The translations under genes were made by a program, and so were the position numbers. A model generated the notes under the pieces. It ran no database searches. It was not told where the DNA came from and saw nothing but the letters and a program-made list of their open reading frames with translations. Shown here piece after piece: positions 938 to 19,976 of a DNA stretch of 64,000 nt. Location: IMG/VR virus record IMGVR_UViG_3300010163_000005, positions 117,781 through 181,780 of that record; one strand, 5' to 3'. Every line of letters starts with the position of its first letter. The first letter of the stretch is position 1. This DNA is from a virus (lineage: Duplodnaviria; Caudoviricetes).

Positions 938-2566
938 TTAATCATTTTGAGTTATTTTAAGTAAATCATTTGTATTAAGATAATAGTTTTTATTTCGATA
1001 TACTTTATTATATTGTTCTTTTCCCTGAAATTCATCTACAACTTTTTGTTCCTCGGCAGGCATATCATCATATTTAACATTACCATAATAAGGGGGCAAC
1101 CAGTTTTTATTTTTACCTACATAAATATTAAATTTATCAATAAGTTCTTGGTTTGTAAATGTTATATGGCAAGTACCTTTTTTATAAAAAGTAACCTTAA
1201 AGAATTTACATTCAATATTTTTAGGATTGTTTTGAGATTCTTCAATAACATATTTTAAATCAACTTGTTTTGTCATATTACCGTCCAAATAATTCAATGT
1301 TTTTTCAATATCTTGTAATAAATCAAGAGCCTTAGAAACACAAAAATCCATACGATTACTAAAATATTGTTTTTCAAATGCATGACAAGGAATAATGACC
1401 TTATAGTTTATTTTATGAGCAATGTTTGTTTTCCAACCGTTATAATAATGAATATTACCATCACATTCAGGATAATAACTATATTTATGAGTTAATGTAT
1501 CAAATAAACTAACAATTGTTTCTTTTACTCCTTGTTGAATAGAAGCATTCATTTCAACAATAAGATTATTGATATTAAATTCATTAAAATCATACTCTTG
1601 CAATTTATCAACTTTTTCTCTGAATTCATCTTGCATATTACTTGTTAATTTTGACATAAACTTAGGATTAGAAAATAATGCTTTCCAATATTTTAATCTT
1701 ACTTTTTTTAAATAACAATTTACAGTAGCTGTATCATATTTATCATCAAATATTGTCAATTTTAATATAGGGTTTTCAAAATGCAAATCACTAACCATAT
1801 CAAAATTGATATGTTTTTCTAGTGTTTGATAATGCTTTATTAATTCTAAAGAAGATTTCACTTCTATATTAAAAAGTTGAACAGCTTTTTTAATATAATC
1901 ATCAATAATAATTTCTGTCTCGTCCTCTTTAGAACTATATTTGTATTCTTCTGCTTTTTGAAATTGCTCCCACCATGGATTTTCCTGTTGAGTAGCTTCA
2001 ATATGAATTTTTATTAATGCTACTTCTACATCAGTTTTTCTTTCCGCTTTAGAAAAAGTATCATTAATATATTTAATATCAGCATTATGCTTATTTAAAA
2101 TTTGCAATAACACTTTTCTTTTATTTGAATAAGGATTTTTAATTGTTTCAGCATTAAGAATACAAACAATGTCTCCTCCATTTTTTTGTAAATCTAATGC
2201 TTTTAAAAGATGTTCCTCTCCATCTTTAAATGGTGGATTCATTATGATTAAATCATATTTCTTAAACGGATTGAATGTTAAAAAATCGTCCCAAACAACT
2301 TTATATTGTTTGTTTTTTAAAATTGCCTGCAAATTTTTATCAATTTCAATACAATCCACATCCAAGTCAACATTTCTACAATAATAACTAATTATAGAAT
2401 TATATTTCTTCATAAGACTTTCCACTATATTACCTTTACCCGCAGACGGTTCAAGAACGCTTGCTACATATCTTAAATCCAAACCTTCAAGCATTTTATC
2501 AATTAATGCTTGCGGTGTTGGATAAAATTGATTGTCTTTCTCTGTATAATTTACCATATCATTCAT
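938..2566 (-). CDS. N6-adenine DNA methyltransferase with DUF4942-type C-terminal domain
   Basis: QFYPTP, VLEPSAGKG (motif I), IIMNPPF (motif IV), C-terminal FFKVTFYKKGTCHITF. Start moved to MNDMV (2566), which has an AAGGAG RBS; a promoter lies at 2603-2632. Confidence 0.88.
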   Translation of the reverse strand: MNDMVNYTEKDNQFYPTPQALIDKMLEGLDLRYVASVLEPSAGKGNIVESLMKKYNSIISYYCRNVDLDVDCIEIDKNLQAILKNKQYKVVWDDFLTFNPFKKYDLIIMNPPFKDGEEHLLKALDLQKNGGDIVCILNAETIKNPYSNKRKVLLQILNKHNADIKYINDTFSKAERKTDVEVALIKIHIEATQQENPWWEQFQKAEEYKYSSKEDETEIIIDDYIKKAVQLFNIEVKSSLELIKHYQTLEKHINFDMVSDLHFENPILKLTIFDDKYDTATVNCYLKKVRLKYWKALFSNPKFMSKLTSNMQDEFREKVDKLQEYDFNEFNINNLIVEMNASIQQGVKETIVSLFDTLTHKYSYYPECDGNIHYYNGWKTNIAHKINYKVIIPCHAFEKQYFSNRMDFCVSKALDLLQDIEKTLNYLDGNMTKQVDLKYVIEESQNNPKNIECKFFKVTFYKKGTCHITFTNQELIDKFNIYVGKNKNWLPPYYGNVKYDDMPAEEQKVVDEFQGKEQYNKVYRNKNYYLNTNDLLKITQND

Positions 2567-2656
2567 TTTAAACGCTCCTTTGTATATTTTTTTATTAATT
2601 ATATTATATAACAATTACTATAACTATGTCAACAATATTATTGTTTATTATACAAT

Positions 2657-3058
2657 TTATTTTATAATACCATACCATTTTTTTAAATTTTTCATTTGAT
2701 AATTATAGATATAGTCATAAAACCCACAATCTTTTCTATACACTATACTATAAGTAGATATATCTATAAAAGTTAGAAATATTGGATCATCAATATCATC
2801 ATAAATTACCATATAATAATTATTTTCTATAATGTATTCTTTTCTTATTAATTGCAATATTTTAGCACTAACATCTAAAGTTAAACATTGTAAATCAATT
2901 ATATTATTGTTATTCATATTATACATTTTAGATAATTTTAAATAAAATTTTAATTTTACTGGTACTTTAATAGTAGGTAAATTAATAATTTTATATTTAT
3001 TTATTAATGAAAAATTAATATATGGTACTTTTATATTGACTAAAACACCTACACTCAT
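2657..3058 (-). CDS. Hypothetical protein, paralog family A
   Basis: YKIINLPTIKV matches 295-711 and 50279-50740; AAAGGA RBS. Confidence 0.6.
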   Translation of the reverse strand: MSVGVLVNIKVPYINFSLINKYKIINLPTIKVPVKLKFYLKLSKMYNMNNNNIIDLQCLTLDVSAKILQLIRKEYIIENNYYMVIYDDIDDPIFLTFIDISTYSIVYRKDCGFYDYIYNYQMKNLKKWYGIIK

Positions 3059-3605
3059 ATTTTATTATCCTTTCATATATAAATTACTTTTATAATAAAT
3101 TGTTAATTTAATTTATTCAGAATACATTTTACATTATCGTCAATATGAAGTTCTATATCATTAACCTTTAAATCATCATAAGTATTATGACAACAGCACT
3201 TAGAACAAGATAAATCATTGTATGTTAAATTTAAATTAACAACATCTTGTTCAAACATTGAATTAGCTATTGTTTTAGTTTTTTGATAATCCATATAATT
3301 AAAAAATGTATTCATTTATATTCACCGTTCCTTTCTTTTATATAATATAAATACACATTTATTAAAATAATATAAATTTATAAGCTATAATTACTTTAAT
3401 TTATATTTTACAATGACACTACTCCTTATATAGGGTAATTATAGCCTATATTCCCTTTATTAAGAGATTTACACAATTATTATATATAACACTACTAATT
3501 AATTTCATTTGCCTAATATCGGTTTTTAAAGGCTTTTACAGTAGGTATATAAAACATTTAATCAAAATATTTATATTAACTATTTTATTATACCGATATA
3601 TAATT

Positions 3606-3995
3606 TTATTTACTTATTCTGCTCAATATTTCTTTTGCTTTATATAAAGTTTCTTTATCAAACCAACCAAAATGACATTCATTAACAGGTATATCAAGAA
3701 GTTTAGCTAACATTTTATAAGCATCTGTTCTCTTAATATTTTTATTGTTTTGCCATATAGGATCAAATAAAGTATGACATTCTTTTTTTAATTCTCTCAA
3801 TTCTTTATTTGCCAATATACCTAATGGTATATTAGTACCTGTATGAACTCCAACATATGAATCACAATTAATACACTTATAACACATTCCATTACCATAC
3901 TGTTTACCATATATCGCAACATTTGAAGTAAAAATAACAGGAGAATTACAATATGGGCAAACTGTTGGAATAGGATAATAATTAATTTTTTTCAT
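3606..3995 (-). CDS. DUF3268-like zinc-finger protein
   Basis: CPYC...CINCDSYVGVH..T..PLG.LA..ELR..K..CH..FD..W, ECHFGWFD. Confidence 0.8.
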   Translation of the reverse strand: MKKINYYPIPTVCPYCNSPVIFTSNVAIYGKQYGNGMCYKCINCDSYVGVHTGTNIPLGILANKELRELKKECHTLFDPIWQNNKNIKRTDAYKMLAKLLDIPVNECHFGWFDKETLYKAKEILSRISK

Positions 3996-15482: not shown

Positions 15483-16334
15483 CTAAATATTTAGAATATT
15501 TAACCATTCTTCTTTTTTAATTTCAGTATTTCCACTTATACCACCTTTTGTACTGCTAATTTTTAATTGTATCGCTTTATTTGTTATTTGCTTTTTCTCT
15601 GATATAAAAATCGGACTTGTTGTTATTTTTAATAATTCATTTATAAAATTAAATATATCAAAACTATCCTTATATTTAGTTGTATTCATATAAGGCGGAT
15701 CAATATAAATAATATTATTACCATTTTTTAATTGTTTATTGTTTAAAATTTTATATATATCTGTATGGTAACATTTTATGCCTTTTAACTTATTTGCTAT
15801 ATAAATTACTCTTTGTTCTAAAACATCTATCATTGGCTGCATAGGATTAACCACACTCTTACGTTTACTTGTTTTAGTAGGTTGCCAATAACTTCTAAAT
15901 GATGTATTTTTCCAAACACCATTATCATTATAAACTTGTTTACCACCAAATGCAGAAGCTTGTAATAGAATATAATAATATTCTTCATCTATATTAGCGT
16001 TCTGTTTAGATATTTGTTTCATATAATTCTGTATTTTACTTTTATCTCTTGGAACTTGCTTTGATATATCTAAAAATTTATTTATATTAAAAAATCCATC
16101 TCCTATACTTTTATAAAACAAACCAAACGAGCCTTTATCTAACATAATAATATTAGGAATATCAATTCCTCTATTAATTAAATTAAGCGTAATTGTTCCT
16201 GAACCACAACATAAATCATAAAACATAGTATCTTTTGTTATATTAACATTATTAAATATGTAATCTATAATTTGTTTTACTACGGCTTGTTTGCCGCCCT
16301 GATATGAACAAGGAGGAATTAATTCAATATTCAT
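15483..16334 (-). CDS. DNA adenine methyltransferase (D12-like)
   Basis: PPCSYQGGKQ, FYDLCCGSG, IYIDPPY. Confidence 0.85.
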   Translation of the reverse strand: MNIELIPPCSYQGGKQAVVKQIIDYIFNNVNITKDTMFYDLCCGSGTITLNLINRGIDIPNIIMLDKGSFGLFYKSIGDGFFNINKFLDISKQVPRDKSKIQNYMKQISKQNANIDEEYYYILLQASAFGGKQVYNDNGVWKNTSFRSYWQPTKTSKRKSVVNPMQPMIDVLEQRVIYIANKLKGIKCYHTDIYKILNNKQLKNGNNIIYIDPPYMNTTKYKDSFDIFNFINELLKITTSPIFISEKKQITNKAIQLKISSTKGGISGNTEIKKEEWLNILNI

Positions 16335-16494
16335 TCTTTTTCCTCTCTATTATTAATGAATTTTTCGAAATTGTAGTAATACAATTACAAATATTATCAT
16401 TTCTTATTTCTAAATGTTGTTTTGTTTTCTTGTTTGTATTATTTTTATATCTACCTCGTAGGCTTGCACATATAGGAAATCGTAAATCATACAT
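16324..16494 (-). CDS. Free-standing C5-MTase TRD-like mini-protein 4 (56 aa, absent from the ORF track)
   Basis: MYDLRFPICASLRGRYKNNTNKKTKQHLEIRNDNICNCITTISKNSLIIERKKNEY; AGAAGGTG RBS 6 nt upstream; stop overlaps the next start. Confidence 0.7.
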   Translation of the reverse strand: MYDLRFPICASLRGRYKNNTNKKTKQHLEIRNDNICNCITTISKNSLIIERKKNEY

Positions 16495-17527: not shown

Positions 17528-17719
17528 TTAATAATCATTTTTTTCTATTATATAATTATCTTTTACTATTGTTGTTATTGTATTAATTATTCCATCATTT
17601 CTTATTGTATACTCTTTTAAGTTACATCTTCTTTCCTTAATATTTCCATTTTCATAATCTTTTCTTATTCGTTTTGCATATTCATTTCGTTGTGTTTTTA
17701 ATATATAAAACTTTTTCAT
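17528..17719 (-). CDS. Free-standing TRD-like mini-protein 3
   Basis: RNEYAKRIRKDYE.G.IKERRCN...IRNDGIINTITTIVKDNYIIE; AGGTGG RBS directly after the upstream stop. Confidence 0.7.
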   Translation of the reverse strand: MKKFYILKTQRNEYAKRIRKDYENGNIKERRCNLKEYTIRNDGIINTITTIVKDNYIIEKNDY

Positions 17720-17730
17720 ACAATCCACCT

Positions 17731-17940
17731 TTATTTATAAATTAAATATAAGCCTCCATTTCTTCCTATTCCAGAACCTTCAGCCATAATAGTTTGTATA
17801 ATACCTTTACTATCATAAATTCTATATCCTTGTTTGTAATTTCTTGAAATATTTTTTTTATTGTTTTCTTTAATTTTTATACCACCTATAAATATTAATT
17901 TATTTTTTGATTCCATATAAATAGCTGTTACCTCCTGCAT
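17731..17940 (-). CDS. Free-standing TRD-like mini-protein 2
   Basis: LIFIGGI...YKQGYRIYDSKGIIQTIMAEGSGIGRNGGLYL; start at 17940 or 17916. Confidence 0.7.
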   Translation of the reverse strand: MQEVTAIYMESKNKLIFIGGIKIKENNKKNISRNYKQGYRIYDSKGIIQTIMAEGSGIGRNGGLYLIYK

Positions 17941-18082
17941 TTCCTACTGGTTGTGATAAAAGACACATTATAATATGTTCTGATGAATAACTTCTATTAC
18001 CTTGCCTATATTGCTTACCAAAATTTTTATCTCCTATTCCACCAATTAATAAAGATTTATCTTCTGTAGTTATTGAAAATTT
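17900..18082 (-). CDS. TRD-like module 1 without a start codon, in the -1 frame of the C5-MTase
   Basis: 60 open codons: KFSITTEDKSLLIGGIGDKNFGKQYRQGNRSYSSEHIIMCLLSQPVGNAGGNSYLYGIKK; begins at the A-AAT-TTT heptamer (18076-18082). Confidence 0.65.
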   Translation of the reverse strand, partial: KFSITTEDKSLLIGGIGDKNFGKQYRQGNRSYSSEHIIMCLLSQPVGNAGGNSYLYGIKK

Positions 18083-19125
18083 TCATCATAACAAATATAA
18101 CTATTATCATATTGTGCTTTATATAAATGCTCCATTATTAACTCTATGCAATTTGTTATTATTCCGTTTCCCGCCTGTTTTGCTATGTTATTATCTGATA
18201 CACATACTTTTTTTATTTTATTATAATCTTCATTAGTTAATCCCATAAATAACAACATTTCTTTTTCTGTTAATCTTCTAACTCTAATATCATTTATATC
18301 AACCTCTTTTGCAAAATGAATATTACTTAATGTTTTTTCTGTTAAATAATATTTTTCATCTACTTCTTTTTCTAATAAATCTTCCGCTCTTAAACCATTA
18401 TCAAACGGTTTAGGAAAAGTAAATAATTTTGTATCTATATCTTTTTTTATACATACAGCAAAAACTCTTTCCCTACTTTGTGGTATACCACAATCTTTGC
18501 CATTTAATATTTTCCAATATATATTATAACCTATATTTTCTAATATGTCTAATAAATCATTAAAATCATTGATAAACTTTTTACTTACCAAAGCTTTAAC
18601 ATTTTCAAACATTAAATATTTAGGTAATTGATTATCTATTTTAGCCTGATTTAATAATCTGATACTCTCCCATAATAAACTACTTCTTGTGTTACTATCA
18701 ATGTTAAAACCTTTCATTTTACCCGCATATGATATATCAGTACACATAAATGATATAGTCCATAAATCTGCATATTTTAATTTATCAACTTTACATATAT
18801 CACCTAAATTATTAGATAATTTACAAGCTAACCAATATTTTTTTATGTCCTTACATCTGCTCCAATTAAAAGATTTTTTATTTTTAAAATTATATCCTAT
18901 GTTTTTACTTTCTAATTCTTTTATCATTTCTTCTTTTGCTGGATATTTATATTCTTCTATTAATTCATTTGTTAGATTATTATGTATAGCAGCATATGAC
19001 AAAGTAGAATCTTTGTTTATTTCAGACGTATTTACAACTTCTAAATCAAATAAATTAGTATTTAATATCCCTCTCTCTTGGCAACCTATGCCTGAAAAAA
19101 GAATGTTCGCTGTTAATTGTTCCAC
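18070..19125 (-). CDS. DNA (cytosine-5) methyltransferase with a very short variable region
   Basis: Motif I LFSGIG, motif IV SFMCTDIS (MC instead of PC), motif VI FENV, motif VIII PQSRER, motif IX RRLT.KE, motif X KQAGNGI. Confidence 0.9.
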   Translation of the reverse strand: MEQLTANILFSGIGCQERGILNTNLFDLEVVNTSEINKDSTLSYAAIHNNLTNELIEEYKYPAKEEMIKELESKNIGYNFKNKKSFNWSRCKDIKKYWLACKLSNNLGDICKVDKLKYADLWTISFMCTDISYAGKMKGFNIDSNTRSSLLWESIRLLNQAKIDNQLPKYLMFENVKALVSKKFINDFNDLLDILENIGYNIYWKILNGKDCGIPQSRERVFAVCIKKDIDTKLFTFPKPFDNGLRAEDLLEKEVDEKYYLTEKTLSNIHFAKEVDINDIRVRRLTEKEMLLFMGLTNEDYNKIKKVCVSDNNIAKQAGNGIITNCIELIMEHLYKAQYDNSYICYDENFQ

Positions 19126-19172: not shown

Positions 19173-19976
19173 CTATTTTATATTAGGAATATATTTTTTT
19201 AAAACATCTACAATATGAAATTGTTGTATTTTTTTCATAGCAATACAATTAACATATTTTTTCCAATTAAACGTATTAAATAAATTAATTATATTTTCTT
19301 TTAATTTTTCATTATTAACTTTTATTTTATACTCTGCTGAATAATGTTCATTATTATTTAATATTTTACCTGCTGTTCCATCTCCCCAATAGCACATTCT
19401 TATATCAAAATCCTTATCATTATAATTCTTACTATCTTGACGATATATAGTTACGTCTTGTAATTTTGATATAGGTTTATTATTTAATTTATTTATAGGT
19501 CTTTTATAAATATTAAAACAACAATGTAATTTTCTATCGGTATATGTATGTATTCCTAAATCTTTACTATAAATTAAATCAAATTCATACATGGAGCGGG
19601 AATTATTTAATTGACTAATTGGTAAAATAAACGCTATATAATCTGCAATTTGTATTGATTTTTTATAAAATTTTTGTGCTAAGTTCAAACATCTTCCATA
19701 AGGTGGATTGCCAATAATCAACCTACCATATAAATATGTAATATCAGCAGATAAATAATCTTGTTTAAATATTTTAGTTTTAGTATTTTCAATACAAGGT
19801 TCTATATCATATCCAAAATGAATAAATAATTTATTGTGATGTGTAAAACTTCCATTACCTATACTTGGTTCAATAACTTCTGAAATATTATTTGTTCCAA
19901 TAATATTACAAACCTTATCCATACAATAATTAGCTAAATCAATAGGTGTATAATATTTATCATTTTTTATTTTCAT
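19173..19976 (-). CDS. N6-adenine DNA methyltransferase (gamma-type order)
   Basis: DKYYTP, IEPSIGNGSF, IIGNPPYG. Confidence 0.85.
   Translation of the reverse strand: MKIKNDKYYTPIDLANYCMDKVCNIIGTNNISEVIEPSIGNGSFTHHNKLFIHFGYDIEPCIENTKTKIFKQDYLSADITYLYGRLIIGNPPYGRCLNLAQKFYKKSIQIADYIAFILPISQLNNSRSMYEFDLIYSKDLGIHTYTDRKLHCCFNIYKRPINKLNNKPISKLQDVTIYRQDSKNYNDKDFDIRMCYWGDGTAGKILNNNEHYSAEYKIKVNNEKLKENIINLFNTFNWKKYVNCIAMKKIQQFHIVDVLKKYIPNIK

Follow-up and report, generated by a model that had tools for sequence, protein, structure and literature searches.

A probable −1 frameshift site joining a target-recognition domain to a phage C5 cytosine methyltransferase that lacks one of its own

In Escherichia coli dnaX (tau/gamma) and in the tail-chaperone genes G/GT of phage lambda (lambda G/GT), a slippery heptamer of the X_XXY_YYZ type lies within a coding gene and leads to the synthesis of a short and a long product in a set ratio. 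Among C5 cytosine DNA methyltransferases (MTases), the multispecific enzymes of Bacillus phages, M.SPRI, M.Phi3TI, and M.Rho11sI, reportedly the subject of work by Trautner and Noyer-Weidner, combine one catalytic core with several short, exchangeable target-recognition domains (TRDs), each of which is expected to confer one specificity; to our knowledge, all TRDs of the known multispecific C5-MTases are encoded in one reading frame, inside the variable region. Other C5-MTases are split or permuted, namely M.AquI (alpha/beta), M.EcoHK31I (whose beta subunit is encoded in an overlapping frame), and M.BssHII (circularly permuted), and the fold thus tolerates cuts near the TRD or reordered parts. 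We know of no split or permuted C5-MTase reported to supply a bare TRD, either alone or through recoding. Full-text literature searches and a review of recoding (Atkins 2016) yielded no published case of a DNA methyltransferase subject to frameshifting. The "methyltransferases" mentioned as known frameshift genes in the PRFect paper were examined and set aside: they trace to macrolide-induced ribosomal frameshifting and antibiotic resistance (Brierley 2013) and to no paper that deals with a DNA methyltransferase. While −1 frameshifting is itself a known process, the literature searched appears to contain no description of its use for adding DNA-recognition modules to a DNA methyltransferase.

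The locus analyzed here lies in what we call the window, the whole stretch of DNA under study, which is the final 64 kb of a 181,780-bp IMG/VR phage record in which inverted terminal repeats are present. Its GC content is 22% and its minus strand holds nearly all the long ORFs. Unlike in dnaX and lambda G/GT, the putative shift would equip a DNA methyltransferase with a TRD, the slippery sequence is A_AAU_UUU instead of A_AAA_AAG or G_GGA_AAG, and the site has neither a hairpin nor an upstream Shine-Dalgarno (SD)-like stimulator. Compared with M.SPRI-type enzymes, the variable region is empty and the modules come after motif X, one of them via the proposed frameshift and three as mini-genes; M.AquI, M.EcoHK31I, and M.BssHII differ in that they split off or permute motifs IX and X. 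The features concerned are as follows:

18070–19125, minus strand: C5 cytosine DNA methyltransferase core, 351 aa (PF00145, E-value 8.8e-43)
18083–18088, minus strand: TGA TGA, two stops (TGA being read as such in this phage) that close the −1 frame directly 5' of the heptamer
18076–18082, minus strand: slippery heptamer A_AAT_TTT, encoding Asn349-Phe350 and matching X_XXY_YYZ in the MTase frame, where the −1 shift is proposed to occur
17900–18082, minus strand: TRD module 1 (TRD1), −1 frame ORF of 60 codons plus TAA, without start or ribosome-binding site, TRD of the FGKQYRQGNR type
17731–17940, minus strand: TRD module 2, paralogous to module 1 (E = 1.1e-4) and encoded in the MTase frame, which is +1 with respect to that module
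17528–17728, minus strand: TRD module 3, own ATG 5 nt past AGGTGG, same type found inside the −1 ORFs of L008 and L014
16591–17538, minus strand: N4/N6 DNA methyltransferase, between TRD modules 3 and 4 (PF01555, E-value 9.5e-49)
16324–16494, minus strand: TRD module 4, own ATG 5 nt past GGTGA, of the ..RGRY..NTITT.. type that ends the −1 ORFs of L009 and L014

The MTase core starts with a GTG located 7 nt past GGAGA and stops with a TAA at 18070–18072. Motifs I, IV (with the catalytic Cys), VI (ENV), VIII (QxRxR), IX, and X (GN) are all identifiable, motif IV having MC in place of PC. The AF2 model of the core (pLDDT 76.8) structurally matches M.MpeI (E-value 1.4e-18) and also M.HhaI. The one criterion that the core fails is the presence of a TRD between motifs VIII and IX, where about 14 residues separate ..VDEKYYL.. 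from motif IX, versus a TRD of 100–250 aa in homologs; relatives of the gene carry two to five tandem TRDs at this place. In BLASTP searches, residues 1–267 and 274–334 of the core aligned with a 417-aa MTase from an Anaeroplasmataceae phage, in which three TRD-like repeats, some 143 residues that the core lacks, lie between motifs VIII and IX. More than 6000 homologs exist; among the matches listed, all 119 database homologs are 437–598 aa long (identity 54–65%), and the 351-aa window protein is the sole member of its own cluster. Because weak matches to Mycoplasma phages had raised the possibility that TGA encodes Trp, we also considered this code and rejected it: the long ORFs contain 136 TGG codons, and the six TGA-terminated ORFs lengthen by just 1–14 codons on TGA readthrough. 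The genetic code of the window is therefore standard, with TGA as a genuine stop. A 267-aa ORF (19173–19976, minus strand) without any Pfam match, which immediately precedes the C5-MTase gene on its upstream side, contains an NPPY motif (..IGNPPYG..); together with the C5-MTase and the N4/N6 MTase, it makes up a methyltransferase island.

The earlier note on this DNA had described an in-phase A-AAT-TTT close to the MTase stop, and the minus-strand sequence bears this out, the ORF ending with ...GAT GAA AAT TTT CAA TAA. The −1 frame, which according to the same note is closed just upstream, lacks a start, and remains open for 60 codons, has exactly these properties: after TGA TGA it reads AAA TTT TCA... 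up to the TAA at 17900–17902, with no ATG, GTG, or TTG ahead of the internal ATG of ..IIMC.. and no SD sequence, so that the predicted junction of a core–TRD1 fusion is ..DENF|SITTEDK. The TGA TGA is an automatic consequence of the codons GAT GAA. The heptamer itself is not above chance in a window with 22% GC, since AAATTTT occurs 171 times where 212 ± 16 occurrences are expected, and GAA AAT TTT is the default spelling of Glu-Asn-Phe at this composition. Heptamer enrichment was thus discarded as evidence, and what gives the site significance is that its −1 ORF is intact, start-less, and homologous to TRDs and that the site is conserved among relatives. These two elements also weigh against a chance juxtaposition of AAATTTT, at an AT-rich gene end, with an unrelated open frame. 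The lack of enrichment is what such a coincidence would predict, but a −1 ORF recognizable as a C5-MTase TRD in a conserved arrangement is not, and we find this explanation scarcely credible.

Given a stimulator, motifs of the H_HH.U_UU.Y class, to which A_AAU_UUU belongs, rank with the most efficient ones for −1 shifting in E. coli (PMC4066793). No stimulatory RNA was found in the window by minimum free energy folding, by a scan of spacers of 3–10 nt, or by an Rfam search, and no SD-like stimulator was found upstream of the site. The best local hairpin near the site reaches only about −3 kcal/mol and the fold of 151 nt has a z score of −0.39, in agreement with the absence of a clear stimulatory hairpin already pointed out in the earlier note. 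Of the criteria for a frameshift site, the window thus meets the in-phase heptamer, the open, start-less, and meaningful −1 frame, and a nucleotide conservation beyond what the amino acids need; it does not meet that of a downstream structure (at 5–9 nt) or an upstream SD-like element. Because both are missing, the yield of shifted product from the heptamer alone might lie well below a few percent. Transcriptional slippage was considered as well, and was thought unlikely on reasoning alone, the A4 and T4 runs being too short.

The −1 peptide had been called TRD-like from its sequence, an identification that holds on alignment to TRDs inside full-length MTases. A tblastn search with module 1 retrieved 90 related stretches in phage contigs. 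The consensus of this TRD type is ..GGxGxxNFGKQYRQGNRxY..GNxGGxSYLY; the same type is found between motifs VIII and IX of full-length MTases in L063, L066, L067, L069, L095, L115, and L117. The window TRD1 keeps all of the 18 columns that are invariant in a 29-row TRD alignment, and its amino-acid identity to relatives is at least that of the core. Relative to these sequences, its dN is 0.20–0.47 and its dS at least 0.8 (often saturated), and its GC content by codon position (0.35/0.38/0.10) has a coding-type GC3 signature. Judging from these substitution patterns, TRD1 is kept by purifying selection despite having no start of its own.

The relatives were examined by scanning the fetched loci for places where a long 0-frame ORF runs into an in-phase AAATTTT and stops close by while the −1 frame is open. 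The scan returned 35 sites, 24 of them distinct including that of the window, hence 23 distinct related junctions. In these 23 relatives, the 0-frame stop lies 3–9 codons past the heptamer, the −1 frame opens 0–10 codons before it, and the −1 ORFs are 67–179 codons long, encode one to four TRD modules, and in several cases contain no ATG, GTG, or TTG at all ahead of the TRD. The earlier note had proposed checking whether homologous MTase ends conserve the heptamer at the nucleotide level, and the outcome is positive: AAATTTT is the sole invariant block in a 21-row nucleotide alignment of the junctions. The codon before Asn-Phe varies (E, G, I, L, Q, or V) and its third base is always A. Given the codon usage of each gene, the joint probability that synonymous choice would produce A|AAT|TTT at 20 sites is about 1e-8.6, a figure that assumes independent sites, which they are not fully. 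The heptamer is retained even in L008 and L014, where several more codons separate it from the conserved ..YKAQYD..C.DE.. end. Asn-Phe followed by at most nine residues forms the C-terminus of 111 of the 119 database homologs among the matches listed, which indicates that the heptamer-end arrangement is, as far as sequences can tell, the rule in a large MTase family. The variants that had been named beforehand as refuting are rare, amounting to one AAC for AAT in L093, the one exception at the heptamer, and one 1-nt deletion in L016, which places the TRD in the +1 frame behind an ATG.

Two further peculiarities of these relatives may be mentioned here. In L014 (1534–4059), L015 (1486–4161), and L016 (1489–4347), an intein-like insertion of about 370 aa interrupts motif IV at the catalytic Cys (..SFPC|F.....HN|CTDIS..). 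In one subfamily (L065, L074, L077, L081, L088, and L066), the C-terminal 60 aa of the MTase form an extension past motif X, with a motif-I-like ..SFFSGIGAFE.. just before the NF heptamer.

Like dnaX and lambda G/GT, the relatives display the classic spacing to a stable stem-loop: a stem of 11–15 bp is located 5–6 nt downstream of the heptamer, with energies of −9 to −22 kcal/mol in 55 nt. When this pairing is laid on the alignment, 87.7% of the cells can pair, versus 39–48% when the 3' partners are slid. Compensatory changes occur in 7 of 11 pairs, and the observed values were reached by 0–2 of 500 shuffles; it must be kept in mind that the hairpin stretch codes in two frames, which constrains its variation. 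In the window, the linker (KFS-ITTEDKS-LLIGG) is some 7–11 residues shorter than those of relatives, and the stretch that is absent corresponds to the 3' arm of the hairpin. Judging from these comparisons, what the window would specifically add to the family is a hairpin-less site on a TRD-less core.

Several loci have the TRDs fused to the MTase in frame. L073 retains both the heptamer and the hairpin, and one extra base in the spacer brings the TRDs in frame (..INF-INP-TSGLDSVCG..), so that its protein is the predicted transframe product bar two or three residues; in the AF2 model of this fusion, the C-terminal TRDs (475–589) have a pLDDT below 50, too low for the model to say anything about docking. 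L019 is fused through a different indel, which removed the heptamer and the stop, and then has another NF/KF site, which carries a separate hairpin and opens into one more TRD ORF. These hard-wired fusions join right at the heptamer position, and the database proteins P0101 and P0102 likewise have in-frame TRDs at their C-terminal end. Without proteomic or ribosome-profiling data, the fusions in L073 and L019 are only indirect support for a transframe protein. The closest relative of the window core, L012, has kept GAAAATTTT with no TRD ORF downstream. Its MTase gene contains two in-frame TAA codons (3046–3048 and 3802–3804), one of which replaces the invariant Gln of motif I, and from its sequence it is probably a pseudogene. 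Since L012 keeps the heptamer without a TRD ORF, the heptamer can persist without function.

Besides TRD1, the window contains three TRD-like mini-ORFs. A Pfam search of these gave no matches, and their identity as TRDs rests on alignment to TRDs within full-length MTases. Module 2 has ATGs at 17940 and 17916, the latter 14 nt past GGAGG, and its ribosome-binding site is weaker than those of modules 3 and 4, which are good; the mini-gene of module 4 stands beyond the N4/N6 MTase gene, apart from the other three modules. The type of module 2 is frameshift-appended in L019, and a search for related loci with module 2 as query confirmed no relatives. All four modules of the window lie past motif X, in separate frames or ORFs, so that the definition of a multispecific MTase (tandem TRDs inside the variable region of one polypeptide) is not met. 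Relatives join the TRD types of modules 2–4 in single −1 ORFs, whereas the window has them as separate ORFs. The layout of L103 is like that of the window, with the MTase followed by a frameshift TRD and then by an ATG-started TRD overlapping the preceding stop, and TRDs of the same type are encoded in other phages (L080, L122, L103, and L099) by free-standing mini-genes that have an SD and an ATG. From their sequences, then, the same TRD types would also be expressed from genes with their own starts, and fusion would not be the sole mode of module use.

At the end of TRD1 (17900–17925, minus strand), the sequence ..ATC AAA AAA TAA precedes TRD2 in the +1 frame; one may speculate that TRD1 and TRD2 would be joined (..GIK-NKLIFIGG..) if ribosomes slipped by +1 or if the A6 run changed by 1 nt. 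We also came across a second MTase family (L080, L122, L099, L103, and L087; about positions 1000–3500 of each), in which the variable region is split into many small TRD ORFs in different frames, flanked by an N-terminal half with motifs I–VIII and a C-terminal half with motifs IX–X. Some of these small ORFs have an SD and an ATG and some show stop/start overlaps; this family may represent a multi-subunit or multiply recoded MTase.

Whether TRD1 can fit the core was addressed by co-folding the two as separate chains. The ipSAE was 0.85, compared with 0.02 for the best control; 58 of 80 solved complexes attained this mark, as did 2 of 110 mismatched pairs, counts that hold only roughly because our own alignments were used. 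The runs share at least 88% of contacts, with a partner pLDDT of at least 74. Residues 31–45 and 49–60 of TRD1 contact motif VIII (215–219), the stretch 242–275, motif IX (279–294), and the GN loop of motif X (315–321), and the module occupies the place of a cis TRD. The model may however reflect memory of, or likeness to, solved intact C5-MTases. TRD1 is thus predicted to fit the empty TRD socket, and binding itself is not demonstrated. As an inference from the same model, a linker of about 20 residues (core 340–350 plus TRD1 1–11) could span the distance.

With the anatomy of the site, the family conservation of the heptamer, the hairpin, and the start-less TRD ORFs, the hard-wired fusions, and the purifying selection on TRD1 all read directly from sequence comparisons, we consider it probable that the MTase end is a real −1 programmed frameshift site giving a core–TRD1 fusion; what is inferred is that ribosomes slip, how often they do so, how TRD1 docks, and which methylation specificity results. 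The fusion by frameshift that the earlier note put forward is thereby supported, no product having been seen. Most ribosomes would read AAT TTT CAA and then the stop, releasing a 351-aa catalytic core without a TRD. A minority would slip back one base with tRNA-Asn and tRNA-Phe on A_AAU_UUU, re-pair on AAA UUU, and read on in the −1 frame to make a 408-aa core–TRD1 protein. In this protein, TRD1 would hang at the C-terminus by the flexible linker of about 20 residues and would fold back to fill the empty socket that lies between motifs VIII, IX, and X and supply sequence specificity, which would make the fusion a cis-competent enzyme. Because the hairpin is absent, the frameshift efficiency in the window is probably low. 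In the relatives, the same site with its hairpin would confer additional specificities on an enzyme already equipped with internal TRDs. The window lineage would have lost both the internal TRDs and the hairpin, and the loss of the internal TRDs would leave the frameshift as the only covalent route to a TRD. We can go further, tentatively, and see the 351-aa protein as a TRD-less chassis that owes its entire specificity to the module tethered by low-rate frameshifting and to three free mini-proteins plugging into the same socket in trans; this extension, in which the use in trans is an inference, is possible, but we regard it as doubtful.

The same observations can be accounted for in other ways. 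The heptamer and the TRD1 ORF could be a relic, inherited from a frameshifting ancestor and giving no useful fusion now, with TRD1 silent or decaying. The lost hairpin would fit such a history, as would the nearest relative, L012, with its two stops, no TRD ORF, and the heptamer still there, and the MC of motif IV. However, the residue before the catalytic Cys is also variable (P, C) among relatives that retain the frameshift cassette, the core ORF and its catalytic motifs are all intact, and a decaying TRD1 would hardly be expected to remain open across 60 codons at 22% GC with 18 of 18 family-invariant residues, a dN far below dS, and a coding GC3 signature; we therefore hold a relic to be unlikely. 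TRD1 could instead be made as a separate small protein, by non-canonical initiation (at ATA or ATT) or by re-initiation past the MTase stop, and join the core in trans. Mini-genes of the same type with SD and ATG do exist in the four phages mentioned above, modules 3 and 4 carry good ribosome-binding sites, and the co-folding placed TRD1 in the socket as a separate chain. Yet neither an ATG, GTG, or TTG nor an SD precedes the TRD in the window, the −1 peptide of the relatives is conserved from the heptamer onward, and it is at the heptamer that the hard-wired fusions join, so that we give little credence to independent synthesis of TRD1.

A sequencing or assembly indel that split a continuous core–TRD1 gene had been named in the earlier note as a possible refutation. 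Single-base indels do occur in contigs of this MTase family (L016 and L136), but the two-frame layout recurs in the 23 distinct junctions, from many samples and in many independent contigs, which disposes of the objection; moreover, the site has no long homopolymer, and its 0-frame stop lies within one codon of the heptamer, as in relatives ending with ..ENFI-stop. We judge an indel very improbable. A programmed −1 frameshift remains the reading that we favor.

If it operates as proposed, this mechanism would account for the way in which gut phages broaden their anti-restriction methylation repertoire with a single gene. Another implication is that standard annotation truncates such enzymes and leaves orphan "hypothetical" ORFs behind. 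The window would represent an extreme case, in which recoded or trans-supplied modules would be obligatory because the core has no TRD of its own, and it offers a clean test system for C5-MTase TRDs provided from the C-terminus or as separate subunits, with a bearing on the engineering of methyltransferase specificity. Should the interpretation of the core as a chassis be true, it would be the first C5-MTase in which TRD subunits act in trans, here in combination with recoding, and one core would methylate several sequences, in a mix set by the frameshift rate and the expression of the mini-genes.
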